The notes under the pieces were generated by a model that was not told the origin of the DNA, searched no databases, and saw nothing but the letters and a program-made list of their open reading frames with translations. The position numbers and the translations under genes were made by a program. From Candidatus Latescibacterota bacterium (GTDB taxonomy: Bacteria; Latescibacterota; UBA2968; UBA8231): a stretch of 64,000 nt of DNA. Shown in pieces: positions 17,527 through 38,679 of this stretch; position 1 is the stretch's first letter; every line of letters begins with the position of its first letter. The stretch lies in assembly GCA_965197905.1 (NCBI GenBank), contig CBDAOB010000001.1, positions 96,001 through 160,000 on the forward strand, read 5' to 3'.

Positions 17527-17528
17527 CG

Positions 17529-21185: not shown

Positions 21186-22487
21186 ATGAGGTTTCGATTG
21201 GCTCGTAGAGACGGTGTCCTGGGCGCCATTGTATTGCTCCTCCTGGTACCGCTGTTTCCGGTCGCCATAGAGGCTTCCGGCACCGCCACGACCAGAGCCG
21301 ACAGCCTGTCCCTGGCGCCTGCGAAACCTCTCCGCTATCGCTCCCGCGGTGAGCAGGCGCTCGCCGTACCCGGGCGCATCGTGCATTTCCCGTTTCACCT
21401 GTTGTTCGTTGGCGGCCGCTACAGCGCTCATCTCGTTTGGGAGGTCCGCTTGATCGATCGGTTGAAAGGTTGGCTCACCACGGAGGATGGGCGGATTGGG
21501 ATTCGTCCACTCTCCAACACCGATATCGGATCCGGTTTCCGTCTTTTTTACAAGCGCCTGCCGAGCACAGCAGACGGCGAGCTTACTTCAACCGTTGGCG
21601 CTGCACCGCGCCAGCGCCAACACCACACCGTTGCGCTGGCGTGGGATAAACCTGCTGCCCTTCCGGGGCGCCTGCATTTGGATGCAGGTCTGCGCAAGGA
21701 ACCGAAAGAAAGCTACTTCGGGGTCGGCCAGGAAACTCCAAAGAATGACCGCACGAGTTTCTTTCAGGAAGACCTCCATGCAGGGCTGCGCTGGGAGCAC
21801 CGGATCGATCGTTCGTTGAAAGGCCAGGCCGCCATCGGCTACCACTCTGTAGACATCGGTGCCGGACAGAGCTCCACGGCCCCAGAGATCGGCATTGCCT
21901 ACACTCCCGTTACCTTGCCCGGCCTCGATCAACGGGTGCATTTCATCGAAAGCTCCGTCGGCGTGCACCGCGAGGTCGTCGACGTTCCGGGAAGTCCGAC
22001 CCGTGGCAATCGCACCCGGCTGCTGCTGGCATACCACCGCGCGTTGGACGAAAAATTCTCGCACCTGCGCATCAACGCAGTGAGCGAGCAGTTCGTCGAG
22101 CTCTTCTACCGACGCACCGCATCCTTGCGCCTGGGCATGGATTGGCGCCACGCCCCTGGGGATGATCGAGTCCCGTTCTACAACCTTGCCTACCTGGGCG
22201 GGATCGAGAATCTGCGCGGTTACACAAGGGGCAGATTTCGCGATCGCGGAACCCTGTTTGCTTCTGTCACCTACAAGTACCCGGTATGGCGCCTGGTGGA
22301 CGGTACTCTGTTTTACGAATCCGGGCGCGCCTTCCATGCCCTGGACGAGCTGGAGCTGGGGGGATGGGCGAGCTCGATGGGAGCCGGCTTGCGAGTGTGG
22401 GTACCCGGCGGCCTGGTTTTCGAACAGCTGGTAGCTCGCAGCGAGGAGGAGCTTCGTCTGTTGGTCAATTTCAAAACAATCTTCTAA
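21186..22487 (+). CDS. Omp85/BamA-TamA family beta-barrel without recognisable POTRA domains (copy 1)
   Basis: Signal peptide, amphipathic strands, LGG..LRGY.RGRFRD loop-6 motif, C-terminal Phe (NFKTIF). Confidence 0.8.
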   Translation: MRFRLARRDGVLGAIVLLLLVPLFPVAIEASGTATTRADSLSLAPAKPLRYRSRGEQALAVPGRIVHFPFHLLFVGGRYSAHLVWEVRLIDRLKGWLTTEDGRIGIRPLSNTDIGSGFRLFYKRLPSTADGELTSTVGAAPRQRQHHTVALAWDKPAALPGRLHLDAGLRKEPKESYFGVGQETPKNDRTSFFQEDLHAGLRWEHRIDRSLKGQAAIGYHSVDIGAGQSSTAPEIGIAYTPVTLPGLDQRVHFIESSVGVHREVVDVPGSPTRGNRTRLLLAYHRALDEKFSHLRINAVSEQFVELFYRRTASLRLGMDWRHAPGDDRVPFYNLAYLGGIENLRGYTRGRFRDRGTLFASVTYKYPVWRLVDGTLFYESGRAFHALDELELGGWASSMGAGLRVWVPGGLVFEQLVARSEEELRLLVNFKTIF

Positions 22488-22491
22488 GTCT

Positions 22492-24135
22492 ATGTTTGCT
22501 AAATTGATACCGATCCTTGCGATCTGCCTCGGTTGCGGAAGCGCCCTGCCGCCGCCGCCGTCGGCGGCCTTTCCCGATCCCGCCCGCCCACTGGCGAAAC
22601 CAAAACGGCGCAAATCGCGTTTGGTCGTAGAGATCATCGATAAGAGCTTCGACTACCAGATCAGTCAGGTGCTGGATCTTCCGCGCATGGGGAGGAGGTT
22701 GATCGGCCGCCCGTATGAAGCGCTCAACGTGGACGAATTTGATGAGGTGTCCAACTCCGCCTGGTTCACCAACCGCAACGGCGTAGAGCCGCTTTCGCCG
22801 CAAGCCATCAGCCGCGGTCCCAATCGATCGAACGGACCCGACATGTCAGCGCCGTGGAAAGTGGTAGCAATCAAATCCGCTGGCGTGACGCCTGGAATGA
22901 CCATTCTCGACGGCAGGGACGACCGGTATATCATCAAGTTCGACCCGCCCGACTTTCCGCAGCTTGCCAGCGCCGCCGAGGTGGTCGCCGCTCGACTGCT
23001 CCATGCCGCCGGCTACAACGTGCCCGAAAACTACATCACCTACGTGGAGAAACGGCGACTCACGTTGGAGTCGGAGGCGAGGCTTACGGTCACCACCAAC
23101 GATTCGCGACCGCCCATCAGCTCGCGCTCGGTGCGCAGAGTCGATCTGGAGGGGCTCCTCGAACGTGCAGGCAGCGACGGCGGCCCCATACGAGTCCTGG
23201 CCAGTCGCTTTCTCGAAGGCATACCGATCGGTCCGTGGTCCTACACCGGGGTTCGGCGGGACGATCCGAACGACATCTACGCCCATGAGCATCGACGGGA
23301 AATTCGCGGCTTCTACGTCATTGCCTCCTGGCTCAACCACGCCGACATGAAGGAGGAGAACACGCTGGACATGTATGACCCGAAAACAAAGCAAGTAACA
23401 CACTACCTCATCGACTTCGGCGCCTCCATGGGCAGCAACAGCACCCACGCTAGCAATCCGCGACGCGGACAGGCAAACAGCTTGGATGTGAGAGACTCGC
23501 TCACGCGCCTGTTTTCCCTGGGGCTCTACGTTCACAACTACGAGAAGGCTCCCCGAACGGTATTCCACCCCTCGGTCGGATATCTCGACAATCGGCTTTT
23601 CAAAGCCGATCGCTGGAAGCCGATGTACCCGGTGCCGGCCTTCGAGAACATGACCAACCGCGACGCGTTCTGGGGTGCCGCCATCGTGACCTCTTTCTCG
23701 AAGGCTCAGATTGAAGCGGCGGTGGCGGCGGCGGAGTTGTCCGAACCGAAAGCCGCCCAGGGATTGGTAAACTTCCTAGCCGAGCGCCGCGATCGCGTGG
23801 GGGCGTACTGGTTTAGCCGGCTCAACGCGCTGACCAGGTTTCAGATCGAGAATGGAGACCGATTGAGCGGATCGGACCTGGCGGTGACCCGAGGTTATGC
23901 GGCTACGCAGGAGACCCGTTATCGAATCCGCGTCTGGTCCGACGGCCGACAGCTACTCCAACTGGAGAACCTCGAACCGACGTTGACATTGGAGACGAGC
24001 TGGCAGAAGCTGGGTTCGGTGGCCGTCTCGTTTCTGCCGCTCAGGGTGAACCGAGAATCTCCCAAACCAGTATGGGTCTATCTCAATTCTACGGCGGGCA
24101 GGTGGAAATTGGCAGGGTTGCGGCGGTTGGACTAG
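22492..24135 (+). CDS. lipoprotein with protein-kinase-like (PI3K/HipA/CotH-type) fold (copy 1)
   Basis: Lipobox-like CLGC; SAGVTPG, YIIKFD, AAEVVAARLL, NHADMKEEN, HYLIDFG. Confidence 0.7.
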   Translation: MFAKLIPILAICLGCGSALPPPPSAAFPDPARPLAKPKRRKSRLVVEIIDKSFDYQISQVLDLPRMGRRLIGRPYEALNVDEFDEVSNSAWFTNRNGVEPLSPQAISRGPNRSNGPDMSAPWKVVAIKSAGVTPGMTILDGRDDRYIIKFDPPDFPQLASAAEVVAARLLHAAGYNVPENYITYVEKRRLTLESEARLTVTTNDSRPPISSRSVRRVDLEGLLERAGSDGGPIRVLASRFLEGIPIGPWSYTGVRRDDPNDIYAHEHRREIRGFYVIASWLNHADMKEENTLDMYDPKTKQVTHYLIDFGASMGSNSTHASNPRRGQANSLDVRDSLTRLFSLGLYVHNYEKAPRTVFHPSVGYLDNRLFKADRWKPMYPVPAFENMTNRDAFWGAAIVTSFSKAQIEAAVAAAELSEPKAAQGLVNFLAERRDRVGAYWFSRLNALTRFQIENGDRLSGSDLAVTRGYAATQETRYRIRVWSDGRQLLQLENLEPTLTLETSWQKLGSVAVSFLPLRVNRESPKPVWVYLNSTAGRWKLAGLRRLD

Positions 24136-24196
24136 CAGCCGGCTGTGAATGCCATGACGCCGAGTTCTTGGAATTCGGTACAAGTCCCTGTGCGTG

Positions 24197-26181
24197 CTAG
24201 ACGGTTTCCTGCAATCCCACCGGCAGAACAACCGTGAAGGTAGTGCCTTCCCCGACCTTGCTTTCCACGTCGATGCGACCTTTGTGATCGGCCATGATCT
24301 GTTGACAGATCGCCAGTCCCAGCCCGGTTCCGGTGGCGGCGCCTTTGGTGGTAAACCCCGACTCGAAGATCCTCGCCAGGCTGTCGGGCTCGATGCCCGA
24401 TCCGGTGTCGCTGATGCTGACGCATGCCTCGCCGTCCCGCAAAAACGTAGCGACGCGAATAGTCCCTTTGCCGTCGATGGCCTGCTGAGCATTGTTGAGG
24501 ATATTCAGGAATACCTGGTTGAGACGACTCGGATAACAAGCGATTGCCGGAAGTTCGGCGTACTCTTTCACGACTTCGATTCTGTTCTTGATGTCATGAT
24601 GCACGAGCATCAGGGTGTCGTTTAGACCGTCGTGAATATCTACCTCGGTCAGGTGATCGTGATCGAGGCGGGCGAAATTTCGAAGACTGCGAACGATCGT
24701 AGTCACTCTGGATGTCCCCGTCTCGATGACCCGATTGCTGTCTTCGATAATCTTCAAAACACCCTGTAACCCCATGTGTTCCTTGCAGTCCTTCGGAAAG
24801 TCCCGCTCGATGGTCGACTTGAGCTTTCCAACTGCTCGCACCAGGGTATCGTGCATGCTATGGATGGCACCGACGGGGGTGTTGATCTCATGAGCGATGC
24901 CGGCCACCAGGTTTCCCAACGCCGCCATCTTTTCGGATTGCAGCAGCTGGGTATGCGCATCGCTGATCTGTTGGAGGTCACCCATGCGGCGAAAACCCTC
25001 CGACAGCACAGCCGCCAGCTCCTTCAGCACCTCCAGCACCTGCTCCGAATAGGCATTCGGCTCGTCGCTGGTCAACCGTAGTGTTCCTTCAGAGAACGGT
25101 ACGTCTACCACGGAACGAACGTCAACGTGGTGCGACTTCTCGAACGGATCCTCCGCCCCAAGGTCGTCCCTGCATGAACACTCCTGCGACTGCCACATCT
25201 TGGTGAGCTCCCCCACCCCCTTCTCCGAGTCCGACACTAGCCATTGACCCTGGCGACTCATACTGCGGGACTTTACCACCGGCGGCTCCACTGTCGTGTC
25301 GATGACGTTGATGCCGCATTCCAGATATTCGATCGCCAGCTGCTCCAACCCCTCCCCGATCGCCGCCAACACATTGGCGATGTCGTCAGCGTCTACCATC
25401 TTCCACACCTCCTCGCGCACGCGTTGCATAACGCCACCGCGCAGTTCGGTGCGTTTGCGCTCGGTAATATCGCGGGCAAACCCCACGTGGCAGAGTACCT
25501 CGCCGTTGTCGTTTTTCACCGGAAAAGCCAGCAGTTCGATATCGATCCACCGCCCCACTTTGGTCTGACTGCGAATCTCACCGCGGAAGCTGCCTTTTTC
25601 CCAGATTTCCTTACCAACCCGCTCGAAGGTCTCTTGATCGGTGTGTAGGGCGGGGGTATGCCCTGCCAGCTCTTCGTCGGTGTAACCCAGCATCTCTCGA
25701 TGCGCCAGGTTCTGCTCGATGTAGTTTCTATTGGCGTCGAGAATCACCACGGCGTCCTGGGTATTGGTGACAATCTCTTTGTAGAGCAGCAAGTTGTCTT
25801 CTAGTTGCTTGCGCTCGGTCACGTCCCGGGCGATGCCTTCATTGCGCACGAACTCGCCATTCTCGAAAATAAGGCGGCGGTTGCCTCGAAGAACTTTACC
25901 TCGCCTCCTTTGGCGAGCATGCGAAACTCGAATCGCCTCACTTCCTGGTCCTGCTTGCTCATGGCCTCTTCGAGGCCCGCTTTCATCTGCGCTTGATCGT
26001 CCGGGTGGATGAATTGGAGCGCGGAGACCCCGATCAGCTCGGCCCGCGAGTATCCGAGGATGTCTTCGGCGGCTTTATTCAGGCTCACAAAGGCGCCCTT
26101 GCCGTCGAGGGCGTAGACGATGTCCGGAACATTCTCCGTCCCCGGCAGGAGCTGTTCGTGCATTTTGCTCATTCGATCCAC
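24197..26181 (-). CDS. PAS-PAS-GAF-like histidine kinase (NtrB type), frameshifted near 25882
   Basis: First PAS in 25819..26181; remainder in 24197..25849 with SEKMAALGNLVAGIAHEINTP, NQVFLN, DTGSG, GTGLGL. Confidence 0.88.
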
Positions 26182-26660
26182 TATGAAAACGCCTTCAGAA
26201 TCTCCTGCTGAATGCCCTGAAGATCGGAATACGCCTTGTTGATCTCCGAGATCTTCCGCTGCAGCTCCGTCGCCAGCCGGTGTTTCTCAAGACCGTTGCG
26301 GATGATGATCTGCAGCTGGTCGTTGTCCCACGGTTTTTCGATGTACTGGAACAGTCCTATGTCGTTTATCGCTTTGATGGCATTTTCTTTATCGGCGTAT
26401 CCGGTCAGTATGATGCGCGGTATCTGTGGCTTCACCTCTCTCACCTTGGCGAGAAAACTGATTCCGTCCATCTCCGGCATCAGGTAGTCGGAAATCACCA
26501 TGTCGACGCGATTGCCGTTGATGAAGTCGAGCGCCTCGCCTGGAGACAGGAACGTCTTTACCTCGTATTCGGTCTCGAGCATCAAGAAAGAGCTGAGAAT
26601 GGTGAGCACCATCTCTTCATCGTCGACGAGTACTATGGTTTCGTTGCTGCCTTCCAACAT
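26181..26660 (-). CDS. response regulator (REC plus coiled coil)
   Basis: LVDDE, ISDYLMPEMDG, IILTGY, YIEKPW. Confidence 0.9.
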   Translation of the reverse strand: MLEGSNETIVLVDDEEMVLTILSSFLMLETEYEVKTFLSPGEALDFINGNRVDMVISDYLMPEMDGISFLAKVREVKPQIPRIILTGYADKENAIKAINDIGLFQYIEKPWDNDQLQIIIRNGLEKHRLATELQRKISEINKAYSDLQGIQQEILKAFS

Positions 26661-26685
26661 GTATTACTCCTGTCTTACCAGCGTA

Positions 26686-27120
26686 CTAGGAACCGGGGGC
26701 ACCGACTCGGCCCAGCAATCCACGCACGCGATCTACCAACGCCTTGAGAACTCCCTGGGTGATCGCCACGTTGTCGGCAAGCAGGTCGATGAAATCTTCC
26801 TTGTTCAACCGCAGCAGACGCACGTCCTCCAACGGCGTCGCCGCAGTGACTCTGGGCTCGTCGTCAAAGAGCGCCCATGTACCGAACGGCTCCCCGGGAC
26901 CGACCACGTTAATCTCCAGATCAGACCGATGTAATCGCACCTTGCCTTCTAATACGACGAACATGGAGTCAGCTGGATCCTGCTCGCTGAAAATCGCTTG
27001 TCCCTTGGGGTGATCTTCCTCTTCGAGGATCGCTGCGAGGTAGGCCAGTTGTTCCGTCGACACCTCTGAAAAGACATCGACGCTCTGCAGGGAAATTACC
27101 TTTTCAATCGTAGTCAGCAT
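26686..27120 (-). CDS. stand-alone cyclic nucleotide-binding domain protein
   Basis: MLTTIEKVISLQSVDVF, MFVVLEGKV, FGTWALFDDEPRVTAA. Confidence 0.88.
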   Translation of the reverse strand: MLTTIEKVISLQSVDVFSEVSTEQLAYLAAILEEEDHPKGQAIFSEQDPADSMFVVLEGKVRLHRSDLEINVVGPGEPFGTWALFDDEPRVTAATPLEDVRLLRLNKEDFIDLLADNVAITQGVLKALVDRVRGLLGRVGAPGS

Positions 27121-27220
27121 ACGGGGGCATTGTACAGGTTCGCCGTACGAGTGTCAATGATTCCAGAATATACGAGAGCGCGCTTGACGGCGCTCACCGT
27201 CGGTTCGGCCGCTGGGGGAG

Positions 27221-29944
27221 CTAAGCCGAGGTCCGCAGCACCATCTCCGCGGTTTCGCGTACGACCTGGTTGGCATCGTTGCGCGCCAGCCTTACCAGCT
27301 CTTCCTTACCGCTGGCGGCCCCTTCGGTAGTGCTGAACAGCGAACAAGCGCGCAACCACGGATCCCGATTATTTACCAGAAATGCCAGCACTTCCTGCTC
27401 GCCACTCATTCGGGCGTTAAAGGTTCTCTCCCCATGATCGATCGCGGCATCGACTGAAAGTGGATCGAGCAAAGGGATGAGCTGTTCCTTGAGGTGACGA
27501 TCAAGGAGATTGTCGAGGAACTCGATGGCGCTGGCCCGTGTAGACCGGTTGCCGCTGACAAGACCCAGATAGGCGAAGTACATGTCCTGCGCATCGAACT
27601 GCAACCCCAGCAGCCTGAAAATTCGCTCCGTGTTCTGATCCTGTTTCTCCTTCAGCGCGCGCTTGAGCAACTGCAGTGCGTGGCGTCCGTCGCGATCTTC
27701 GTAAAAATGGATCGCCTGTAGTAGGTCGAAATAAGCTCTGAGCGCCCGTTGCAAAAGCTGGTCGATCAACCCCCGATCGAACTCGAGACCATCGCCCCTG
27801 CTACGCAGTTTGCTCAACGATTTAATGAGGGCGAACTGCAACTGAGGTTCCACCTCGTCCAGCATACTCAACAGCAGGTCTACCGATTCCTGTTCGGCCA
27901 CCTGCCCCATGATGCGGGCACCGTTAACGCGATCGCCGTACTCTGCTTCTGCGTCCCTCACAATGGCCGCAACGGGCTCGAGAGCGTCGGACCCGTACTG
28001 GGCGAGAGCGCGCCGCGCCGCCAGTCGGTAGCGCCGGTCTCCCATCTTCTCCAGGAGCAATGGAAGAAAGTGAGGATCGCGCAGTCCACCCATGCTCAGT
28101 ATCATCTCTTCGACGACGGCGGGTTCGGGGTCGTTGAGGAACTGGGTAATGATTTCGTTGAGGTACGGCCGACCGTTTCGCTGCAGACTGGAGACGATCC
28201 TGGCGGCTTGAACCCGTTCGCTCACACCTATGGGTCCCGAAGAGGCGATGTGATGGCGAATCAACTCCTCGTCGACCAGCTGGTTCTCCTCCTCCGTACC
28301 GTATCTAGCGATGCAGCCGATAGCCGCCGACCGCAACAGGCCGTCATCGCTGTTCACTGCATTTTCGAAACACTGCTGCCGTGGTTCCCCTCCATGCACA
28401 CTGAGGTAATGCAACGCCTCGATCCTTACATCCAGTTCGCCATCCTGAGTCAGGGGTCTGACATCCTCGGGTGATATGGCAACCTCTTGACCCAAAAGAA
28501 CCTTCAAGGCCTTTTGTCGCACCACCCCGGAAGAATGTTGCAGCAGTCGGCGCGAAGGTTCCACTAGACGGCGGGCCCTGACCGCGGACAGCATGTCCAG
28601 CGCGTAATCCAGCTGTCGTTCATTCTCGCTTTCCAGGGAGGCAACCAGACTGTCCAGCGCCGCCGCCTCGTTGATATCGACGGTCAGCTCCCCGACGTCG
28701 ATCTCCCGTTTTTCCAGCGCTTGACGGAAGCTGTTCACGTAGGCCCCGCGTCCATGAAAGACCAACGCCATCCACAGCGCGATCAGCGCCAGCGAGAGAA
28801 AGCTGAGATGCTGATACGAAACCCCGAATACGGAAATTGCCAGCAGCACCAGAACCGCACCGAGTCCGGTACAGAGGTTGTCTACAGTCGTATCCAACAG
28901 CACCTTCGTCCGCTGTTTTATCGCCGCCGGAATCGGCAGGAACAGAATCTCCACCGCGGATTTGTGGATCGAGTGCCGAAAACCGCCATCCCCCAGCTTT
29001 ACCAGGATACCGGCCATCAAACCCGGGATTGCCAGCAAGGCAACCGATCCGACTGCGAGACTCACCGGCAGGAACAAAAGCGCGGAAACCACACCGAACT
29101 TGCGCAGGAAACGGGGCGTTACGAACACCTGGAAGAGGAACGCTAGAGCGCTCAGATAGGCGAAGAACTGACCGAAGAACGCGGTCTTGGCATCCTTTGA
29201 GGGAAAAGCACGATCGGCGATGTCGTTGAACTGCACGTCGACGATTGCCGCAACTACGGCGACAAGGGCGGCCATTCCTGCCAGCAACCGCAGGAGATCA
29301 GAACCGCGCACGGTCGCCCAGACATTTTGGGTCGTCGCTTGTTTCTCGCTCGGGGCGGCCGCCTGTCTCGAGCGCACGAAGTAGAGCAGCAGTAAACTCG
29401 CCAGCAGCATGCCAGCGCAGACGATGAGCAGGTTCTCGGTGCCAACCCTGCTGACGATCCAGCTGGTCACCGCACCACCGGCGATGCCGGCAGCGCCGAT
29501 AAACCCGAACAGCCGTCTCGCCTCCCGGGCGTCGAACAGGGCGTTGGCCAAGAGCCAGAGCAGCGATGTCGCCATCAACCCGTAGATGTTTACCCACACG
29601 TAAAAGAGGTAGAAGCTCCACGCCCAGCCACGGGGCAGAACGAGCCAGAAGAGCAACAGGTTGCTCAGGAGAATCAGAAAAACGACCGGAATAATGCGGT
29701 CGAGCCGCGTGCGCTGCGAAAGACCCGCGAAAAGCACTGCAACACCCGCTCCGACGAACGCCACCAGGAGCAGCACGTAAGGCAGCTGCTCGACCCCCAG
29801 CTTATCGAGAAAGAGCGCGTTGCGGACCGGCTTTAGCACGTAGAGGGAAGCCATGACCAGTCCGTACGCCAAGGTCAGCGGCAGGATGCGTGGTAACTCC
29901 TGCCGGCGTAGATCGACGACGCTGCTCAGCAGCCTATGAATCAT
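27221..29944 (-). CDS. NTT/TLC (Npt1/Npt2) nucleotide transporter fused to HEAT repeats
   Basis: ~430 aa hydrophobic MFS-like domain with LKPVRNALF, WLLANALFDAREARRLFG, RHSIHKSAVEILFLP, KVLLD; then HEAT-like helical repeats ending DANQVVRETA. Confidence 0.85.
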   Translation of the reverse strand: MIHRLLSSVVDLRRQELPRILPLTLAYGLVMASLYVLKPVRNALFLDKLGVEQLPYVLLLVAFVGAGVAVLFAGLSQRTRLDRIIPVVFLILLSNLLLFWLVLPRGWAWSFYLFYVWVNIYGLMATSLLWLLANALFDAREARRLFGFIGAAGIAGGAVTSWIVSRVGTENLLIVCAGMLLASLLLLYFVRSRQAAAPSEKQATTQNVWATVRGSDLLRLLAGMAALVAVVAAIVDVQFNDIADRAFPSKDAKTAFFGQFFAYLSALAFLFQVFVTPRFLRKFGVVSALLFLPVSLAVGSVALLAIPGLMAGILVKLGDGGFRHSIHKSAVEILFLPIPAAIKQRTKVLLDTTVDNLCTGLGAVLVLLAISVFGVSYQHLSFLSLALIALWMALVFHGRGAYVNSFRQALEKREIDVGELTVDINEAAALDSLVASLESENERQLDYALDMLSAVRARRLVEPSRRLLQHSSGVVRQKALKVLLGQEVAISPEDVRPLTQDGELDVRIEALHYLSVHGGEPRQQCFENAVNSDDGLLRSAAIGCIARYGTEEENQLVDEELIRHHIASSGPIGVSERVQAARIVSSLQRNGRPYLNEIITQFLNDPEPAVVEEMILSMGGLRDPHFLPLLLEKMGDRRYRLAARRALAQYGSDALEPVAAIVRDAEAEYGDRVNGARIMGQVAEQESVDLLLSMLDEVEPQLQFALIKSLSKLRSRGDGLEFDRGLIDQLLQRALRAYFDLLQAIHFYEDRDGRHALQLLKRALKEKQDQNTERIFRLLGLQFDAQDMYFAYLGLVSGNRSTRASAIEFLDNLLDRHLKEQLIPLLDPLSVDAAIDHGERTFNARMSGEQEVLAFLVNNRDPWLRACSLFSTTEGAASGKEELVRLARNDANQVVRETAEMVLRTSA

Positions 29945-29966
29945 GGTTTCTGTCTGGGATTTGTGG

Positions 29967-31370
29967 TCAGCTCGACAGCCCGGTTTCCTTTTCACCGAAG
30001 GACCTGCCCGCGTAGCGGGCGGCGGCGATCCAAACCACCAAGATTACAATGGTCGCCAGCGACAACCAGCGAATCGCCCCGAAGCCGGCAAAGAGGGTGA
30101 CAATCAACAGGTTGACGCCCACTGCCAGCGCCTTGGCGAAACGTTGTACGAACATGTCGATGAACGCCTTCGCTTTGTATTTCTCGTCGCGGGTAGTGGG
30201 AACGTACAATACCTCCTTGGCCGATTGGTTGATGGAATAGCTCAAGCCGTTGTCGGAGGTGTTTAGCAAGCTTCCGATCAGCAGAACCGGGGCGATGAGA
30301 AACCCCGCGGAGCCCAGCAGAGCCGCGACGGGCAGGAAGAGCAACGCGGTACCGACGCCAAAGCGAGTCATTACAAAACTGGTAAGCAGCAGCTGGACGA
30401 TCAGCGCCACCATGTTTGTGAAGGAGAAGACCCGCGGAAAGTGCTCGCCGATGGCGGCGCCTTCGAGGTGGTGGACCACTGCCGAAGTGAACTGGAAGTC
30501 CATGATCGTGGAAACCATCTCGTAGAGACCCACGATAGCCACGATCGACAACAGGTACTTCGAACGGAAGACCAGTCGGGCGCCTTCGAAAGCCGCATTC
30601 CCTTGCGGTTTCTCTTCCGACTTTGCCTCCACTTCCGCTTCCGGCGGTGGATTCTTGGCGACCACGCGGCCAGCGGCCATGGCTATGAGCGCGATGGCCA
30701 GAGCAATGCCGAGACAGACCCACATCCACAGAGAGGGACTCGAAGCCTTCACGTAGATACCGACCACCGAGCTCCCGAAGAATCCGCCAAGGACCCCGCC
30801 GAGCCCAATCAGTCCATACAACCTCTTGGCGGCGGCCGGCGCAACGCTGTCGTTGAGGAAGGCGAAGAAGCTCGCCACCATCAGGGTGCTGAACAGGTCG
30901 CCGAAGAGATAGAACGACCAGATAGTGAATGCACCGGGACTGTTCAGCAGGAAGCTGTACACCGCATACGCCAGCACGAAAAAAATGCTCAACGCATATG
31001 TAAGCTGCTGGCGACGCAGGGACCGGGCGAGGATCGTGAATATGGTCGCGGCGGCGAACGCCACCGCCATGTTCAACACCTTGGCAATCTGCTCTGCGCC
31101 TGGACCGTCGAGAACCCACCCAAACAGATCAAACGGAGTCGAGCTGTAGAACTCGAGGAAGGAGGTTTTCTTGATCGGTTTGAGAATCCAGAAGGTGGTG
31201 ATGACCAAAAAGAAATAGAGGAACATTAGCAGGGCTTGAGCCCGTTCTTCTGGGCGGAACCCTTTGATCTGTCGTCCGACGAGAACCAGAAAGATGAGCA
31301 CCAGCGGCCATTGGAGAGCCGCCACATAAGACATGAAGCTCTCAAAGAAAGCAAAACCTACCGATTCCAA
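29967..31370 (-). CDS. NTT/TLC (Npt1/Npt2) nucleotide transporter, stand-alone
   Basis: ILKPIK, AKRLYGLIG, YSINQSAKEVLYVP, KYKAKAFIDMFVQRFAK, which match ATP/ADP-translocase family motifs. Confidence 0.88.
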   Translation of the reverse strand: MESVGFAFFESFMSYVAALQWPLVLIFLVLVGRQIKGFRPEERAQALLMFLYFFLVITTFWILKPIKKTSFLEFYSSTPFDLFGWVLDGPGAEQIAKVLNMAVAFAAATIFTILARSLRRQQLTYALSIFFVLAYAVYSFLLNSPGAFTIWSFYLFGDLFSTLMVASFFAFLNDSVAPAAAKRLYGLIGLGGVLGGFFGSSVVGIYVKASSPSLWMWVCLGIALAIALIAMAAGRVVAKNPPPEAEVEAKSEEKPQGNAAFEGARLVFRSKYLLSIVAIVGLYEMVSTIMDFQFTSAVVHHLEGAAIGEHFPRVFSFTNMVALIVQLLLTSFVMTRFGVGTALLFLPVAALLGSAGFLIAPVLLIGSLLNTSDNGLSYSINQSAKEVLYVPTTRDEKYKAKAFIDMFVQRFAKALAVGVNLLIVTLFAGFGAIRWLSLATIVILVVWIAAARYAGRSFGEKETGLSS

Positions 31371-31380
31371 TGTGTCCCCC

Positions 31381-33075
31381 TTATTCCTGACGCCCGATAC
31401 CGGCTATCCGGAGCACTCCGGCACCGTCGGCATAGACATAAACGCGCGTGTATTTACTCCACCTTCCCGAGTTCTGACGCTGGGTGCGGATCTCGAAGCC
31501 GCGCACGACCATCGGTTTCAGCTCCAGATCCACCCTCCAGCGAGGTGACTCAGAGAGCTTGTCCACTCCGACGCGCCTGCCCCCGGCGTCGATGGCATGG
31601 TAGCGATAGCTAGCGGAGGAGGTCAACCCTCCCGCAACTGCCAGATCCGCGAAGCGCAGCTCGCCATCGACCACGACGAAACGATCCAACGGATTTACGC
31701 GTGCGAACCAGTATTTGCCAATCATGTCGCGGCGCTCCACCAACAATCGGGTGAGCTCGGCGGCGGCCCGCGGATCGGAATACTGGCCCATGGCCACCAT
31801 CGCTGCAATCTCCTCCTCGTTGAAGTTCATGAGGATTTTCGCTCCCCAATAGCCGTCGCGGTTGGTGCAGCGCTCGAAGGCCGGGTTGGGATAGGTAGGC
31901 ACCCAGCTGGCAGCGTCGAAGGTTTCGTTCTCGAAGTAACCCAGCTCGGGGTATTTCATGGGCAGCGGCTCTTCCCAGGGTTTGCGGTAGAACCCGAGAG
32001 AAACGATCGAACGCAGGATAGTGCGCGGATCCCACACGTACTCGTTGCCGTATTTGGGCAGATGGGGCATGAGGTTATTGCTTCCAAAGGCTGAGCCCAT
32101 ATCGATGAGATAATGTTTGACGTAACGTCGGCCTTCCTCATCCACGTACATATCCAGCGTGTTGGCGGCACGCCGATCGGCGTCGTTCATCCACGAGCCG
32201 ATCACTCGCAATCCGCGCAGCTCGCGGCGGTGCTGGTGATCTACCCGGTCGTTCGCATCGTCCTTGCGCCTGCCGTGACAATCGAAAATTCCTACCGGTT
32301 TGCCGGACAGAAACTTGCTGGCGATGCAGCGCAGGGTGCCGTCGTTCTGCGGGATGATGTTGTCGAGGATCCCCTGCAGATCTTTTTGGTTCATCGGACG
32401 CTTTTTGCCGCCCGGTACCGGAACCGTCGCTTTGGGACCGATCGTCAAACGTTTTGGATCGAAATAAACCACCGAGTTGCGCGGCACGTTGTATCCCGAC
32501 GCATGCAGAATCTTGGTGGCGATCACCTCCGCCGCGGAACCCATCTCGTTGTTCCCCTCGGAGTCGAACTTGAGCAGGAAATAGGCACCTTGGGCATCCT
32601 TTATGGTGAAGCCGGCGGTCCCCCCCTCGAACTTTCCAGCGACGATCTCCCATGGTCCGCTGGCGTGGGGCCTGGCGTGTCCCAGGCCGGTTTGCAGCTC
32701 GTCGAGCGACATGGGATGGAGAAAGTGGCGATTGGTATACCAGGAGGAGTTCGGGGTCTCGTCGAGAGCGTTGGCGTTATCCGCCTGGCGAGGTGGCGCG
32801 ACATTGAGAATGTTGCCCAGCCGGCGAGCCGACCATCCCAGGTCCAATAGTTTGCCGACCTGGTAGAACAGGGTATGGTCGGCGATGTCCCAGATCTGGT
32901 TCTCGACGATCTCCGCCGGCTCGGAAATGTTCTGGCTGTCGGCATCGAACCACTTGATCGCCGCGGCGGAAACCTCGGCCCCCAATTCCCCTGAAAGCAA
33001 CATCAGCACTGTCAGGGCACCGAGCGGCAAGAATCCGGCCAGCCGCGCCTTTGTTGGCTGGAGAGGCGGTGCCAT
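31381..33075 (-). CDS. secreted protein-kinase-like protein (copy 2)
   Basis: Signal peptide; DETPNSSWYTNR, FEGGTAG, FLLKFD, AAEVIATKIL, NDADRRAAN, HYLIDMG; clear paralogue of 22492..24135. Start overlaps the Omp85 stop. Confidence 0.72.
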   Translation of the reverse strand: MAPPLQPTKARLAGFLPLGALTVLMLLSGELGAEVSAAAIKWFDADSQNISEPAEIVENQIWDIADHTLFYQVGKLLDLGWSARRLGNILNVAPPRQADNANALDETPNSSWYTNRHFLHPMSLDELQTGLGHARPHASGPWEIVAGKFEGGTAGFTIKDAQGAYFLLKFDSEGNNEMGSAAEVIATKILHASGYNVPRNSVVYFDPKRLTIGPKATVPVPGGKKRPMNQKDLQGILDNIIPQNDGTLRCIASKFLSGKPVGIFDCHGRRKDDANDRVDHQHRRELRGLRVIGSWMNDADRRAANTLDMYVDEEGRRYVKHYLIDMGSAFGSNNLMPHLPKYGNEYVWDPRTILRSIVSLGFYRKPWEEPLPMKYPELGYFENETFDAASWVPTYPNPAFERCTNRDGYWGAKILMNFNEEEIAAMVAMGQYSDPRAAAELTRLLVERRDMIGKYWFARVNPLDRFVVVDGELRFADLAVAGGLTSSASYRYHAIDAGGRRVGVDKLSESPRWRVDLELKPMVVRGFEIRTQRQNSGRWSKYTRVYVYADGAGVLRIAGIGRQE

Positions 33076-34463
33076 CAGAACTCCTTCTCCAGAGAGAATC
33101 CGGTGAGAAGCCGCTCTGCCGAGCTGTGGGAAAGTCGGAGGCCGATCAGGAAGGCGGTTTCCGTTCGCAAGCTCAAGCCACCGCCCCACGAGCTGCGGAA
33201 GCGACCTAGCTTTACCTGCTCGTATTCGTCGAAGACCTGACCCTCGTCCCAGAACAGAAAGGCATTCCAGGTATCCCATACGGGATAGCGGTACTCGGCG
33301 CTCAGAAGCAGACTGCCCTCGCCGCGAAGGACGCCACGACGAAACCCGCGCAGCCTTTGGCTTCCGCCCAGCGTCGGTAGATCGGAGTAGGGTGCTATCT
33401 TATCGTCGCCTATGGTGTATACCTTTTCAGACAGGGCCCGCAACGCGAGTATTCGGTCTCGATAAAACAGGGTGAAAAACCGCTGAACCTCCGCCGCTGT
33501 GCGCAGAAAAGCTACCTCTTCGGAACCTGTGATGAAATCCGCTTCCAGCTGCAGCAGTCCGCCTCTTTCGGGATAGGCGAGGTCGCGAAAACTGAAATAC
33601 TGGTCGTTCGATACCAGCAGCAGACGCCCGGGCAACTGATAGTTGAGCGGATGTGAGATACTGCCGGTTGGCTCTTTGTAGTCCCGATCATCCCAGGCGA
33701 TCCGGCCGCCGAAGGAGAGCAGGGTGATGTCAAGGCCCACACCTCCGAATCCCGCTGCGGAATCCGTCAGTCCCGGAGGATCCCAGGGGGCGAAGGTCTG
33801 CACCCAGCGCCGTTGACTGAGTTCGCGGGTGCCAACCCCGATCCGCCCCTCGATATTGAGGTTGGAACGATACTCCTCCAGCTCGTCGGCGTGGGTGCGC
33901 CAGCCGAGAGTAGCTTGCAGATCGAACCGTTCGATCTCCAGCCGGCGCAGATCGTCCTCCCGAATCGGGCCGTTTACGGTAGCGCCCTCATTGTATGTTT
34001 GTAGGTACGCAGCGTCGACATGCCAGTAGAGCTTGCTACCCGCCACGTTCTGATCGCTGTAGAAAAGCTGTCCGGTCTGCCCCGCCCCCGCGTAAACAAA
34101 TTGGGCTTGGAATTCCCTCCCCTTCCCAAACAGGTCGGTGTGAAAGGTGGAGAAACCGCCGCCGGTGCCGGTTTCTCCACCAAGCTTGGCATACGGGAAA
34201 AAACCGAAGGTCCTATCCGCGTTGGTGAACAGATCGATTACCCGCTCCTGCAGCTCCTCGCGCTCGAAGTAGATTACGAACTGGCCCAAGGGGTAGACCG
34301 CGGCGGTCCACAGCAGGCGCGGGAACTCAAGGTAATAATGTTCGGTCTGGTAGGCACTGGTGCTGTCGGCGGCCGCTGCAGCTACGGCTGCCTCGTCCGA
34401 CGCCTCTGCCGAGGCTGTGATACCGCCGCAGGCAAGCAGCACAACAATCAGTAGATGTCTCAT
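33075..34463 (-). CDS. Omp85/BamA-TamA family beta-barrel without recognisable POTRA domains (copy 2)
   Basis: Signal peptide; LGGSQRLRGF, AEYRYPVW, SWGGGLSL; C-terminal Phe (LEKEF). Start overlaps the RND stop. Confidence 0.8.
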   Translation of the reverse strand: MRHLLIVVLLACGGITASAEASDEAAVAAAAADSTSAYQTEHYYLEFPRLLWTAAVYPLGQFVIYFEREELQERVIDLFTNADRTFGFFPYAKLGGETGTGGGFSTFHTDLFGKGREFQAQFVYAGAGQTGQLFYSDQNVAGSKLYWHVDAAYLQTYNEGATVNGPIREDDLRRLEIERFDLQATLGWRTHADELEEYRSNLNIEGRIGVGTRELSQRRWVQTFAPWDPPGLTDSAAGFGGVGLDITLLSFGGRIAWDDRDYKEPTGSISHPLNYQLPGRLLLVSNDQYFSFRDLAYPERGGLLQLEADFITGSEEVAFLRTAAEVQRFFTLFYRDRILALRALSEKVYTIGDDKIAPYSDLPTLGGSQRLRGFRRGVLRGEGSLLLSAEYRYPVWDTWNAFLFWDEGQVFDEYEQVKLGRFRSSWGGGLSLRTETAFLIGLRLSHSSAERLLTGFSLEKEF

Positions 34464-37400
34464 CAATAGGTGAAATCCTTGAAACGCACGCCGAAGAAAA
34501 GAGAATACAGAACCGGCACCAGCCCAAGGGTCAGTGCTGTGGCGAAGAACAGTCCGAAGATAATTGCCACTGCCATCGGTTCAAACATCGGTCCTCCGCC
34601 ATACCACAATGGCAACATGCCACCCATAGTGGTGCAGGTGGTGAGCAGGATCGGGCGCAGCCTTCCCAGGCAGGCTTGGATGACGGCGCGTGCCGGCTCC
34701 AACCCGTTCTGCTCCCGTTCCAGCTTGATCCGATCGAGGAGAACGATGGCGTTGTTGATGATGATTCCCGCCAAGGCTATCACACCGAGGAAGGTGACGA
34801 ATCCAAAATAGGACTTGGCCACCAGAAGCCCTATCACGACACCGATGAGACCGAGAGGGATTGTCAGCAGAATGATCAATGGGCGACGGATCGAGTTGAA
34901 CTGTCCCACAAGCAGCATAACGATGATCAAGCCGGCGATGGGCACCTTGACCCCGATCGATTCGTTCCCCTCCACCGACGCCTCCCACTCGCCACCGAAC
35001 TCCGACCGGTATCCGACGGGCCAGGCGATCGTCCGCAGCGAATCCCCAAGGGGCTCGAAGATCTCCATTGCATTGATGCCGGGCTCGACGGCAGCCGAAA
35101 CCGTCACCGTCTTCAGCCGGTCCCGTCGCAGAACCTTCGCCGGCTCCCAGACCACCTCGATGTGGGCCACCTGCTTCAACGGTACGGAGCGGCCGGTGAC
35201 CTGCGAGAAGATGTTGAGGCTTTCCAGCTTGCCCAAATCGTGCCGGTCCGCCTCCACGGAGCGCAGTGCGACCGGAATGACCTCGTCCTTCTCCCGGTAC
35301 TGGGTAGTCTCGAATCCGCTCAGCACCGTCTGTAGAGATACGGCAACATCCTGACTGGTGAGACCGGCGCGGCGCGCTCGCGGCTGATCGATGCGGACCA
35401 CCAGCTTCTTAGTCCAGGCGCCCCAATTGTCGCTGATGTTCTTGGTCCCGGGGATCGCGGCAAGCTGGGTCTTTACCCGGTCGACGAACTTGAACACCTC
35501 GTCGATCTCTTCGCCGGAGATTCGCACCTCGATCGGATCCATGACCGGTGGCCCATTGACGAGGCTGCGAATATCTGGTTTCACATCCGGAAAGTTCTCG
35601 AGGCAGAACCGCTCCAGCTTGGCAATCAGATCTGAGACGACCTCATAGGAGGAGGTGTTGACCAGCATCATGGTGTATTCAGGGCTGGCGTGGCGCGGAT
35701 TGAACGGCAGCGCAAACTTCGGCGGTCCCTGACCTACGAAGGTCGCCCAGTTGACCACTCCCTCGGGTCTGCCCTCGCCAGCCGTGAGCTCTTCTTCCAA
35801 AAACTGATCCACCCTCCGCGCGAAGGCCTCGGTGCGTTCGATGGGTGCCCCGATGGGCAGCTCGAATTCGGCCGTCAGGGTCGCCTGATCCTTGGCCGGA
35901 AAGAAGATTTGCGGAATAAATCCGAACCCCTGCATCGCCAGGAAGAAGACGGCGACGGCGCCCGCAACGCTGAGCAGTCGATGCCGCAACGCAGTCAGCA
36001 ACACTCCGCGATAGCGGCGGTAGAGCGGGGAGCCGAAACTCTCCTCCTGACTCTTCTGTTTGACCTTCATGAAGGTAACGCACAACATCGGTATCATTGT
36101 CAGCGAAAGCACCCATGAGCTCAGCAGGGCGATGCTCACCACTTGAAAGAGCGGGGCTGTGTACTCCCCGACCGTCGATTCCGCCAGGTAGATCGGCAAA
36201 AAGGCCGCTGCGGTCGTGAGGGAAGAGGTGAGCAAAGGGATCCGCAGCTCCCGCGCCGATTCCAGCGCCGCGTCCAGCGCCGCGGTGCCGCGAGCGATTC
36301 CCACCATGATCGATTCAGACATCACGATGGCGTTGTCCACCAGGAGTCCCAGGGCGATGATCAGAGCCGTGCGGGACATCTGATCGAGGCCGATCTCGAA
36401 CTGATCCATGATCAACAGGCTCAAGACCATGGTCATCGGTATAAGGGTTGAAACGACGAGACCAGTGCGCACGCCGAGACTCAGCAGCATCACCACCATG
36501 ACGATGGCCACCGCTTGCAGCAGGTTGCTGACGAAATCGTCCACCTTCTTGGTGACGATGTCGGGCTGGAAGGCGACGAAATCGAACTCCAATCCTATCG
36601 GATACCGTTCCTGGAGACGTTTTACGGTTGCCCGCACCTCGGTCCCCAGGTGAATCAGATTACCGCCCTCCCGCAGCGATATCCCCAGGGCCAGCGCCTC
36701 TTGGCCGTTGGCACGGACCCGGCGAGTCGGCGGATCGATATATCCGCGGTAGACGCGGGCGATATCCTCGAGATAGACCAGCTCCGAACCGCCGGGTAGA
36801 TTGATGATGGTGCGGCGGAGGTCCTCCACCGACTCGAAGTTTCCAGAAGGCTCTAAGACAATGCGCTCAAACCCGGTGTTTATGTCGCCCCCCGGCAACA
36901 GGATGTTGCGACTCTGCAGGATGTTGCGCAGGTGAACCGCTGAGATCCCCATCTCCGCCAGCCGGGCGTTGTTGTACTCGACGAAGATCCGCTCGTCCTG
37001 GGTTCCGTGAATCTCTACCTTCGCCACATCCTTGATCTTGAGTAGCTCGTTGCGAACCTGGTCGGCAACCTCCTTCAACTCCATGTAGCTGTAGCCCTCG
37101 CCCGTGAGGGTGGCGATGGTGCCGAAGACATCGCCGAACTCGTCATTGACCAGCGGCCCGATCACGCCATCCGGGAGTTCGCGGCTGGCGCGTTCGACCT
37201 TGCGCCGTAGATCGTCCCAAATCGGACGCAGCTGGCGCTCGCTCTCCTGAATATTTACGAAGACTTCCGAAACGCCGGTGCGCGAGGTGCTGTTGACGAA
37301 GTCCAGCTGGGGAATCTCCTCGATCGCCTTCTCCAGCTTGTCGCTCACCAGGAGCTCAACGCGCTCGGGGCTGGCCCCGGGGAAGAAGGTGAGCACCTGG

Positions 37401-37534
37401 GCGGTGCGAATGATGAATCCCGGATCTTCATTGCGCGGCATCTGGTCGTAGACCTGGATCCCGGCAAAAAGAATTACTATCAGCGCAACCGCGGTGACGC
37501 GGTTGTTCTCTATGGCGGCACGGGTGACGTTCAT
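34463..37534 (-). CDS. RND efflux permease (AcrB/AcrD/AcrF family)
   Basis: 1023 aa; PGASPERVE, GLLVDNAIV, GIIINNAIVL, RLRPILLT. Confidence 0.95.
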   Translation of the reverse strand: MNVTRAAIENNRVTAVALIVILFAGIQVYDQMPRNEDPGFIIRTAQVLTFFPGASPERVELLVSDKLEKAIEEIPQLDFVNSTSRTGVSEVFVNIQESERQLRPIWDDLRRKVERASRELPDGVIGPLVNDEFGDVFGTIATLTGEGYSYMELKEVADQVRNELLKIKDVAKVEIHGTQDERIFVEYNNARLAEMGISAVHLRNILQSRNILLPGGDINTGFERIVLEPSGNFESVEDLRRTIINLPGGSELVYLEDIARVYRGYIDPPTRRVRANGQEALALGISLREGGNLIHLGTEVRATVKRLQERYPIGLEFDFVAFQPDIVTKKVDDFVSNLLQAVAIVMVVMLLSLGVRTGLVVSTLIPMTMVLSLLIMDQFEIGLDQMSRTALIIALGLLVDNAIVMSESIMVGIARGTAALDAALESARELRIPLLTSSLTTAAAFLPIYLAESTVGEYTAPLFQVVSIALLSSWVLSLTMIPMLCVTFMKVKQKSQEESFGSPLYRRYRGVLLTALRHRLLSVAGAVAVFFLAMQGFGFIPQIFFPAKDQATLTAEFELPIGAPIERTEAFARRVDQFLEEELTAGEGRPEGVVNWATFVGQGPPKFALPFNPRHASPEYTMMLVNTSSYEVVSDLIAKLERFCLENFPDVKPDIRSLVNGPPVMDPIEVRISGEEIDEVFKFVDRVKTQLAAIPGTKNISDNWGAWTKKLVVRIDQPRARRAGLTSQDVAVSLQTVLSGFETTQYREKDEVIPVALRSVEADRHDLGKLESLNIFSQVTGRSVPLKQVAHIEVVWEPAKVLRRDRLKTVTVSAAVEPGINAMEIFEPLGDSLRTIAWPVGYRSEFGGEWEASVEGNESIGVKVPIAGLIIVMLLVGQFNSIRRPLIILLTIPLGLIGVVIGLLVAKSYFGFVTFLGVIALAGIIINNAIVLLDRIKLEREQNGLEPARAVIQACLGRLRPILLTTCTTMGGMLPLWYGGGPMFEPMAVAIIFGLFFATALTLGLVPVLYSLFFGVRFKDFTY

Positions 37535-37535
37535 C

Positions 37536-38631
37536 TCAATGGTCTCCCAGCAGTCTCACCCTCTGTCCGTCGACGATGCGACTGATGCCCGCGGTCACGA
37601 CCCGGTCCCCGTCGCTGATCCCTTCGATCACCTCGAAGTTCTCGCCCATGAAGTCGTCCGTGCGCACCTTCAGCGCGCGTCGGTGGACTTGACCAAATCC
37701 CTCGCCTGCCGGCACGACGACGTAGGCAAAATGACCGTTGCGGTCCTCGCCCACCGATACCAGCGGAACGTAGATATGCTCGCGCTTTCCGGTGGCGCCG
37801 AAGCTGAGCCCCACCTCCGCCGCCATGCCCGGCCTGCAGTCGGGATCGGAGTGATCCAACCGCACCGTAACCGGGAAGGTAGTAGCGGTACCGGTCGAAG
37901 TGACGCCGACCTCGGTTACGTGACCGGTGAACTCCCGATCCTTCAGCGCATCGAACTTTACGGTGGTTGGCTGTCCTTCGCGCACCTGAGCGATCAACAG
38001 CTCGGGTACGGCGATCTCAACCTCCAGCTGGGAGCCGGAAGTCAGCAACACCGCCGTCTGCCCGGGAGAGACGTTCTCGTTCGCCTCGATCCGCACGGCG
38101 GCAATGGCACCGTCAACCGGCGCCGCCAAGCGTGCATATCCTAGCTGAGATTGAGACAGCTCCAGCTTCTTGCCCACCGATTTGACCGTTTCGTCCGCCG
38201 ATACCGCCCCGGCGCGGGCAGCGTCCAGATCGTTGCGCGAGGCGTTGTTGTTTTCGTAGAGCGCCCGCACCCGCGCGTAGTTCGAGCGGGCGTTCATGGC
38301 CTGCGCTTTGGCGCTGGCCAGACTCGCCTCGGCATCCTCGACCTGCAAAGCGGTAGTCGCCGTCGTCCAGAGCCGCGAGGAGCTGTCCCTTTTTCACCTT
38401 GTCCCCCACTTCGACGGCGACACGTTCGACGGTCCCGGCTACCTTGAAGCTGAGCTTCGATTCCAGCGCGGCGCGAGCGGCGCCGGAGAAGGTGCGGGTC
38501 CTTCCGCCACCGGTTGCGAACACCTGCTCGAAACGAACCGGACGAATTACCGGTTCGGGAGGCGCCATCTCCTCCGCGCACCCTGGCAAGAATGGGGCGA
38601 CCGACACAACTATATAGAACGGGATCTTCAT
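37536..38631 (-). CDS. RND membrane fusion protein, frameshifted near 38348
   Basis: Lipoprotein start LPGC, LSFKVAG, VEVGDKVKKGQ; continues LQVEDAEA...LAAPVDG in the 37536..38348 frame; apparent extra T in cgctttgcag. Confidence 0.88.
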
Positions 38632-38679
38632 GAGCTAACCTCCAGCTTGCGCTGTTTTTATAACCGGGGCTTCCGAAAC

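Follow-up and report, generated by a model that had tools for sequence, protein, structure and literature searches.

Proteins with the atypical kinase fold are found on both sides of the cytoplasmic boundary. HipA is the cytoplasmic toxin of a toxin-antitoxin pair, the lipid kinase PI4KIIalpha and Legionella MavQ act on cytosolic membrane faces, and the Fam20 and CotH kinases act outside the cytosol; eukaryotic kinases of the secretory pathway rely on ATP that is carried into their compartment, and the bacterial periplasm is generally held to lack ATP. Here we describe two paralogous genes in a 64,000-nucleotide (nt) stretch of the genome of a Candidatus Latescibacterota bacterium (contig CBDAOB010000001.1, positions 96,001 to 160,000 of the forward strand; this whole stretch is called the window below). 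Their products, KinA and KinB, are putative exported enzymes that, according to a structural model of KinA, have a protein-kinase-like fold structurally nearest to CtkA/HipA, PI4KIIalpha, Fam20 and CotH, and they belong to a large family that has neither a name nor a description. Each gene adjoins one for an Omp85 outer-membrane barrel that lacks POTRA domains, and that of KinB is followed by genes for carriers of the NTT type. On balance we think it probable that these are envelope phosphotransferases of kinase fold, with POTRA-less Omp85 partners of their own and with ATP supplied by NTT carriers.

Both kinds of neighbour have described counterparts. POTRA-less ("noNterm") Omp85 proteins are a recognised class without an assigned function (Heinz and Lithgow 2014, PMC4104836; PMC11358297). 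Those of Leptospira are like the partner barrels found here in having no POTRA domain and in being followed by a gene for a lipoprotein (here a lipoprotein-like product), but the neighbours themselves differ, being DUF1566 and Big-domain lipoproteins (PMC11358297), and the word "kinase" is absent from both papers. Proteins in which an NTT domain is fused to HEAT repeats, with an adjacent gene for a cNBD (cyclic-nucleotide-binding domain) protein, were described in free-living bacteria by Major, Embley and Williams (2017, PMC5381601), who left their function open, including how the fused NTT and HEAT domains work together, and offered ideas of ATP uptake or exchange. Our window has the same architecture and gene order; the difference is that here the NTT-HEAT and cNBD genes stand in one string with exported kinase-like and Omp85 genes, and neither "periplasm" nor "export" is found in the text of that paper (PMC5381601). 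We found no published description of a kinase-fold/Omp85/NTT system, nor of any ATP-dependent kinase system of the Gram-negative envelope, in a literature search whose coverage ended short of subscription journals.

Two paralogues with export signals and a predicted kinase fold

The two genes at the centre of this work are as follows.

22492-24135, + strand: KinA, 547 amino acids; a lipoprotein-like exported enzyme with a kinase-fold core at about residues 104-444, a C-terminal FN3-like domain at residues 443-536 and the catalytic loop DMKEEN
31381-33075, - strand: KinB, 564 amino acids; paralogous to KinA, with what looks like a plain signal peptide, the catalytic loop DRRAAN and the Mg-binding motif DMG

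A first-pass annotation, made from the DNA letters, had proposed that two exported paralogues in this region keep a full set of atypical kinase motifs in the right order. Both open reading frames (ORFs) were found as described, and a BlastP comparison of KinA with KinB gave 39% identity over 459 aligned positions with an E-value of 1e-109; they are the only copies in the genome (6.69 Mb in the five contigs searched). Every motif listed in that annotation is present in the two sequences, in the order given there: the Gly loop (SAGVTPG in KinA, FEGGTAG in KinB), the beta3 Lys motif (IKFD, LKFD), the alphaC Glu motif (AAEV in both), the catalytic loop (DMKEEN, DRRAAN) and the Mg-binding motif (LIDFG, LIDMG). 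Two further motifs of that list are common to both, DEVSNSAWFTNR in KinA matching DETPNSSWYTNR in KinB and HEHRREIRG matching HQHRRELRG. The KinB coding region lies within a longer open frame (31381-33279, - strand), and the ATG at 33075-33073, Met69 of that frame with GGAGAAGGAG directly 5' of it, is where KinB likely begins; with the start placed there, the end coordinate of 33075 given earlier is exact.

We assessed the N-termini by eye and with a relaxed pattern of our own, in place of a trained predictor. By these means the N-terminus of KinA, MFAKLIPILAICLGC, has a hydrophobic stretch leading into LGC and looks like a lipoprotein signal, and that of KinB has a hydrophobic stretch without a Cys and looks like a plain signal peptide, in agreement with the lipobox and the signal peptide that had been assigned to them. 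By the same pattern 79 of 86 relatives carry a Cys directly after the hydrophobic stretch; the seven that lack it include KinB and L075_1272, which is one of the two proteins of the studied loci closest to KinB.

An AlphaFold model of KinA built from a 39-sequence alignment was confident (mean predicted local distance difference test score, pLDDT, of 90.7; predicted template-modelling score of 0.91), and we aligned it to 48161 PDB representatives. The top 13 matches, with Z-scores from 13.8 to 8.8 over model residues ~104-448, were all atypical kinases, bearing out the pattern of PI3/4-kinase, HipA and CotH type that had been read from the motifs. The best match was CtkA (PDB 3akj; Z 13.8, root-mean-square deviation 3.9, 230 residues aligned), and the others comprised PI4KIIalpha (Z 11.4 and 10.9; PDB 4pla for the higher), Fam20 proteins (Z 11.2, 10.3, 10.2 and 9.2), HipA (4pu3, Z 10.1), CotH (Z 10.1), actin-fragmin kinase (Z 9.7), an entry titled only "the kinase" (7wcf, Z 9.6), HipT (7ab3, Z 9.2) and MavQ (7m7a, Z 8.8). 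The comparison by Foldseek agreed, giving CtkA a probability of 1.00 and also PI4KIIalpha, Rio2, HipT and Fam20, with weak E-values of about 1e-3. All motif residues fall on the expected secondary-structure elements of the model: the Gly loop is flanked by strands 122-128 and 135-139, strand 145-150 has K149 at its end, helix 158-173 contains E163, D285 and N290 are between helix 274-281 and strand 291-296, and D308 follows strand 301-306. The model combines a two-lobed kinase fold, the beta3 Lys with the Gly loop, and the DxxxxN motif with the Mg-binding Asp, and from the order of these elements and the global superpositions the catalytic residues may lie in one pocket. Residues 443-536 form a separate FN3-like sandwich (Z ~8).

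The ESM Atlas gave leads only (Fam20C, HipA_2, LepB_N and PI3_PI4_kinase, with scores of ~0.8), and NCBIfam had no family for KinA and a chance-level match for KinB. A search of PDB sequences with the profile of set A1 gave no match; with KinA it gave only a sulfide-quinone reductase (E 0.008), which we judged to be chance and set aside.

The nearest structural relatives differ from KinA and KinB. Relative to CtkA, HipA and HipT, the two proteins add an export signal and the invariant motifs WxTxR and HEHRRELRG, and KinA adds an N-terminal helix predicted to lie at the interface with Omp85, and the FN3-like tail; moreover, no antitoxin-like gene was seen at the KinA/KinB locus, in contrast to the setting of HipA. 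Fam20C/Fam20 and CotH (5xom, 5yh0, 4kqa and 5jda; Z 11.2 to 9.2) have the atypical kinase fold in common with KinA, but nothing in those systems corresponds to the Omp85 partner or the NTT-type carriers. The lipid kinases share the fold, and the PAP2 fusion and PAP2 neighbour genes of our family described below would fit a lipid substrate; we also take the HYLIDFG motif of the Mg-binding region to resemble that of PI3/4-kinases. Neither KinA, KinB nor any of the 39 A1 members matched Pfam PI3_PI4_kinase (PF00454), Fam20C (PF06702) or CotH (PF08757) at E ≤ 1, a search in which the HMMER filters drop many matches above E 0.1.

The family itself is large. Of 8000 candidates scored in a word-indexed search, 2517 proved to be relatives at E ≤ 0.001, and a full profile search returned 4129 clusters at the same limit, with 1472 at E ≤ 1e-30. 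There is no Pfam or NCBIfam model for it, and none of the 120 best relatives from the word-indexed search contains a Pfam domain. The genome records of the relatives are labelled Latescibacterota, Calditrichia, Gemmatimonadota, Zixiibacteriota, KSB1, Marinimicrobia, Ignavibacteria, Rhodothermales, Acidobacteriota, Poribacteria and others. Conservation was counted in 88 sequences, namely KinA, KinB and 86 proteins from 80 related loci, these loci being the best of 541 confirmed relatives; three ORFs in the wrong frame were left out. In KinA numbering K149 is kept in 88/88, D285 in 86/87, N290 in 87/87 and D308 in 86/87, and among the Gly-loop residues G131 is kept in 86/88 and G135 in 85/88, so that the motifs of KinA and KinB are not a product of chance. 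A second set of residues, W91, R95, D258, D261, R269 and R272, is kept in 88/88 each. The alphaC Glu, E163, is variable (77/88).

The catalytic loops of KinA and KinB had also been said to differ, and the two forms prove to be true clade markers: the KinA type, DMKEEN, occurs in 9 of the 88 sequences and the KinB type, DRRxAN, in 14, the remainder being DxKxxN (50), other DxRxxN (13) and unclassified (2). The DMG variant, with Met after the Mg-binding Asp, occurs in 14 sequences, which from the motif table appear to be the same 14 as those with DRRxAN. KinB is 63-64% identical to its closest relatives as against 39% to KinA, and therefore the duplication is old. We presume a likeness of DMKEEN and DRRAAN to the catalytic loops of eukaryotic kinases in their Ser/Thr and Tyr forms, and the difference between the two, read from the sequences, may point to different substrates for KinA and KinB.

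Some relatives depart from the common form. The A-type relative L003:5007-6704 has Asn for both catalytic Asp residues (NMKEEN, TNFDG), and may be a pseudokinase or an assembly error. In the genomes G139 and G078, both of the same class, the family match is split into profile positions 8-385 (16-385 in G078) and 385-549, lying ~1.6 kb apart, which looks like an inserted piece of DNA, and G069 and G006 have family fragments in differing frames.

These patterns bear on a first alternative, that the kinase fold serves only to bind a ligand or the barrel, and that the protein, as an accessory lipoprotein in an assembly machine of Omp85 type, takes the place of the absent POTRA domains, with no transfer of phosphate. 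The variable alphaC Glu and the two Asn replacements in L003 would suit such a scaffold, as would a periplasm free of ATP and the predicted position of KinA, in the complex described below, where POTRA domains normally sit. Against this, across several phyla 86-88 of 87-88 sequences retain the catalytic Lys, Asp, Asn and Asp, which would be unexpected for a scaffold, and the family is linked to nucleotide carriers and phosphatases; we therefore regard a pseudokinase or scaffold as quite unlikely.

Omp85 partners and the predicted complex

Each kinase-like gene directly follows a gene for an Omp85 barrel on the same strand.

21186-22487, + strand: Omp85_A, POTRA-less Omp85 barrel, partner of KinA (Pfam Omp85 PF01103, 42.8 bits against a cut-off of 24)
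33075-34466, - strand: Omp85_B, POTRA-less Omp85 barrel, partner of KinB (Pfam Omp85, 51.6 bits against a cut-off of 24)

The stop of Omp85_A is 4 nt 5' of the KinA ATG, and the TGA stop of Omp85_B (33077-33075) overlaps the KinB ATG by 1 nt. This arrangement is typical of the family: among the 74 related loci with at least 1300 nt of upstream DNA, 69 have an Omp85 match on the same strand that ends no more than 600 nt upstream. Of the five misses, L011, L062 and L075 do have an adjoining upstream Omp85 gene and failed our overlap rule only, and no Omp85 match was found upstream of L018 and L048. The two barrels scored only 27 and 31 bits against the NCBIfam model of BamA (TIGR03303; cut-off 297), and Omp85_B gave no match in a search of PDB sequences. 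In the model of Omp85_A (pLDDT 86.4) helices 54-85 and 89-97 are followed by 16 strands, and ahead of the barrel there are only these helices and no POTRA domain. The best structural match of the barrel was TamA (Z 26.9, 287 residues aligned), followed by BamA, Sam50 and FhaC.

We modelled a complex of Omp85_A residues 50-433 with KinA residues 17-547, giving each chain its own alignment. Three runs gave values of 0.67, 0.66 and 0.68 for the interface score ipSAE, compared with 0.00 for the best of three controls; as a rough calibration, 116 of 157 solved complexes scored as high, as did 2 of 215 mismatched pairs, counts that are approximate because our own alignments were used. The runs share at least 94% of their contacts, with a pLDDT of at least 85 for the partner. 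On the Omp85_A side the contacts are made by residues 51-86, i.e., the N-terminal helix, and by turns 307-310 and 363-375, which are periplasmic turns by our own strand count; on the KinA side they are made by residues 43-78, 264, 267 and 331-352. From this model KinA probably docks under the Omp85_A barrel, at its periplasmic face.

The same data must be set against a second alternative, in which the Omp85 barrel moves the kinase-like lipoprotein across the outer membrane in the style of two-partner secretion, for display at the surface or release, and the enzyme is an ecto-kinase or an effector. Two-partner secretion genes likewise have the barrel first and the passenger second, and the barrel here also resembles FhaC and CdiB in structure (Z 22.6 and 22.3). 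For the POTRA-less Omp85 genes of Leptospira, which are likewise followed by lipoprotein genes, a transport role has been discussed and also argued against (PMC11358297). The FN3-like domain at the C-terminus of KinA is of a type frequent in extracellular proteins, and the top structural match, CtkA, is titled a proinflammatory kinase of H. pylori. TpsB proteins, however, receive their passenger through POTRA domains, which the Omp85_A barrel model lacks, and no two-partner-secretion (TPS) domain was found in KinA or KinB (Pfam, E ≤ 1). The complex model sets the folded enzyme on the side that we read as periplasmic, and the inner-membrane NTT carriers and membrane PAP2 proteins linked to the family fit a periplasmic site better. 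All in all we consider secretion or surface display unlikely and prefer the reading of KinA and KinB as periplasmic phosphotransferases docked at their barrels.

Nucleotide carriers, phosphatases and flanking genes

Directly 3' of KinB, and on the same strand, are five genes, given here in the order in which they follow it; the last stands between the KinA and KinB modules.

29967-31370, - strand: single-domain NTT (TLC family), a nucleotide-carrier-like transporter (Pfam TLC PF03219, 67.1 bits against a cut-off of 21)
27221-29995, - strand: NTT-HEAT fusion, in which HEAT repeats come after an MFS/NTT-like membrane domain (Pfam HEAT_2, E 1.3e-16, and MFS_1, E 8.7e-10; NCBIfam TIGR00769, E 9e-9, below its cut-off)
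26686-27120, - strand: cyclic-nucleotide-binding protein, of a kind commonly encoded beside NTT-HEAT genes (Pfam cNMP_binding, E 1.7e-19)
26181-26660, - strand: response regulator with a receiver domain (Pfam Response_reg, E 2.1e-25)
24197-25849, - strand: PAS histidine kinase (Pfam HATPase_c, PAS and HisKA)

The TLC gene starts 10 nt 3' of the KinB stop, and its product matches a chloroplast ADP/ATP carrier (9j3j_A, E 6.6e-14); against NCBIfam TIGR00769 it scored 73.8 bits, below the cut-off of 387.2. Carriers of this kind recur in the family. TLC or NTT-HEAT matches were found in 33 of the 80 loci; of the 58 loci whose downstream DNA extends for at least 2500 nt, 26 have such a match downstream. 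By loop class, an NTT gene lies no more than 2.5 kb downstream in 3/6 B-type, 14/39 C-type and 4/11 other loci. The two regulators are rarer, with relatives of the response regulator at 56-94% identity in 5/80 loci and of the PAS histidine kinase at 50% identity or more in 8/80. The association can also be seen at the level of whole genomes. A search of 151 genomes from the phylum, all with a completeness of 80% or more, found the family in 40 and a TLC match in 60, with both in 35 and TLC only in 25; thus TLC is matched in 35/40 genomes with the family and in 25/111 without it, and as related genomes are not independent we give these as counts and attach no statistical test. Four of the five genomes with the family but no TLC match have family fragments only.

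Phosphatase genes accompany the family in other loci. A Metallophos gene whose product has a hydrophobic N-terminus is present in 16/80 loci, in several of which it stands between the kinase-like gene and the NTT gene, and a membrane PAP2 gene lies near the Omp85 gene in 4/80. In one member of the family the protein is fused to a PAP2 domain, which by eye closely resembles the PAP2 of locus L026. We gave no weight to a further fusion, P0254 (955 amino acids), in which a GT4 glycosyltransferase is followed in one frame by a lipoprotein signal and a kinase-like part; this is a single case and maybe a join made by gene calling.

Carriers and phosphoesterases together raise a third alternative, namely that the NTTs import external nucleotides that the kinase-fold protein and the Metallophos protein process in the periplasm, or that the fold catalyses something other than kinase chemistry, e.g., AMPylation. 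Kinase folds with other chemistry are indeed known from SelO and SidJ, and the position of the Metallophos phosphoesterase between kinase-like and NTT genes in several loci would suit scavenging. The characterised NTTs, moreover, are all importers (PMC5381601). On the other side, the tight pairing with Omp85 would have no obvious role in scavenging, the fusion to a membrane PAP2 domain suggests lipid phosphate over free nucleotide, and no Metallophos or PAP2 relative was found within the window. We consider this alternative very unlikely.

Several other features of the window were also noted. An RND efflux set (outer-membrane factor, membrane-fusion protein and AcrB-like pump; 34463-41046, - strand) ends exactly at the start of Omp85_B; we considered these genes as part of the system and dropped them, as AcrB relatives are present in only 4/80 loci and the adjacency looks incidental. 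Its outer-membrane efflux protein (39145-41046, - strand) has an unusual combination of domains, with ABC_sub_bind (PF04392, residues 150-328) ahead of the OEP domain. Farther away, at 16606-17933 (- strand), the list of ORFs includes two that overlap, a small helix-turn-helix-like regulator followed by a 322-amino-acid protein with a HELAH motif, which presumably recall pairs of XRE and ImmA/IrrE type. A sigma-70-like site at 27129-27157 (- strand; TTGACA, 17 nt, TACAAT; 11/12 matches) lies just 5' of the cyclic-nucleotide-binding gene; such sites are no commoner than in shuffled sequence, and scans of the window for promoters and terminators gave results at the level of shuffles.

Proposed mechanism and its meaning

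We propose that each kinase-like protein is made together with its own POTRA-less Omp85 and would dock at the periplasmic face of that barrel, KinA being held by its lipid anchor and KinB being soluble in the periplasm. The two enzymes would most likely move phosphate from a nucleotide onto a substrate in the envelope, which could be a protein or else a lipid or glycolipid. The periplasm would most likely receive its ATP through both NTT-type carriers of the KinB operon; control of the system would fall to the histidine kinase, the response regulator and the cyclic-nucleotide-binding protein, and envelope phosphatases would oppose the kinase-like enzymes. In its most complete form, this would be a dedicated system of envelope phosphorylation in which NTTs export ATP, the Omp85-docked kinase marks an outer-membrane lipid, glycolipid or client protein, PAP2 and Metallophos enzymes reverse the mark, and the paralogues differ in substrate; we hold this complete form only tentatively, as a possibility that falls somewhat short of even.

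A number of observations weigh against the reading of the family as ATP-fed envelope kinases. At the level of sequence, no Pfam model of a known kinase family reached its threshold with KinA, KinB or the 39 A1 members. The sole sequence signal in KinA does point to HipA, in line with the structural likeness, but it is a match of 17.9 bits to HipA_C (PF07804; cut-off 30.5, E 0.0026) confined to residues 130-188 in the N-lobe; KinB has no HipA_C match in Pfam. At E ≤ 1 four A1 members match HipA_C and four match HipA_2, none better than E 0.0014 and so well below the strength of a match at the cut-off, and a comparison by hhalign of A1 with a 10-sequence HipA_C alignment drawn from the genomes of the relatives was weak (E 0.15) and again restricted to the N-lobe. 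The alphaC Glu, moreover, is the least conserved of the motifs. At the level of gene content, the family is patchy even within its phylum (40/151 genomes), and none of the seven KinA-type (A-type) loci has an NTT gene within 2.5 kb downstream; as no NTT gene is seen in about half of the loci, the link to them is frequent and not obligate. Finally, the characterised NTTs import nucleotides into parasites and plastids (PMC5381601), and none of them is known to export nucleotides.

The kinase fold, the conserved catalytic residues, the export signals and the linkage of the genes to those of Omp85 and NTT proteins nevertheless form a context that hints at phosphorylation outside the cytoplasm. It is the Omp85 partners and NTT genes, which go beyond what the first-pass annotation had noted, that give the finding most of its interest. 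If active, the family would define a new envelope process and would explain what POTRA-less Omp85 barrels do; if the proposed supply of ATP is also true, it would explain why free-living bacteria keep NTT-HEAT carriers with their cNBD genes, and would overturn the rule that there is no ATP-driven chemistry in the bacterial periplasm. The window also lends itself to a natural comparison, with two modules in one genome whose catalytic loops differ.

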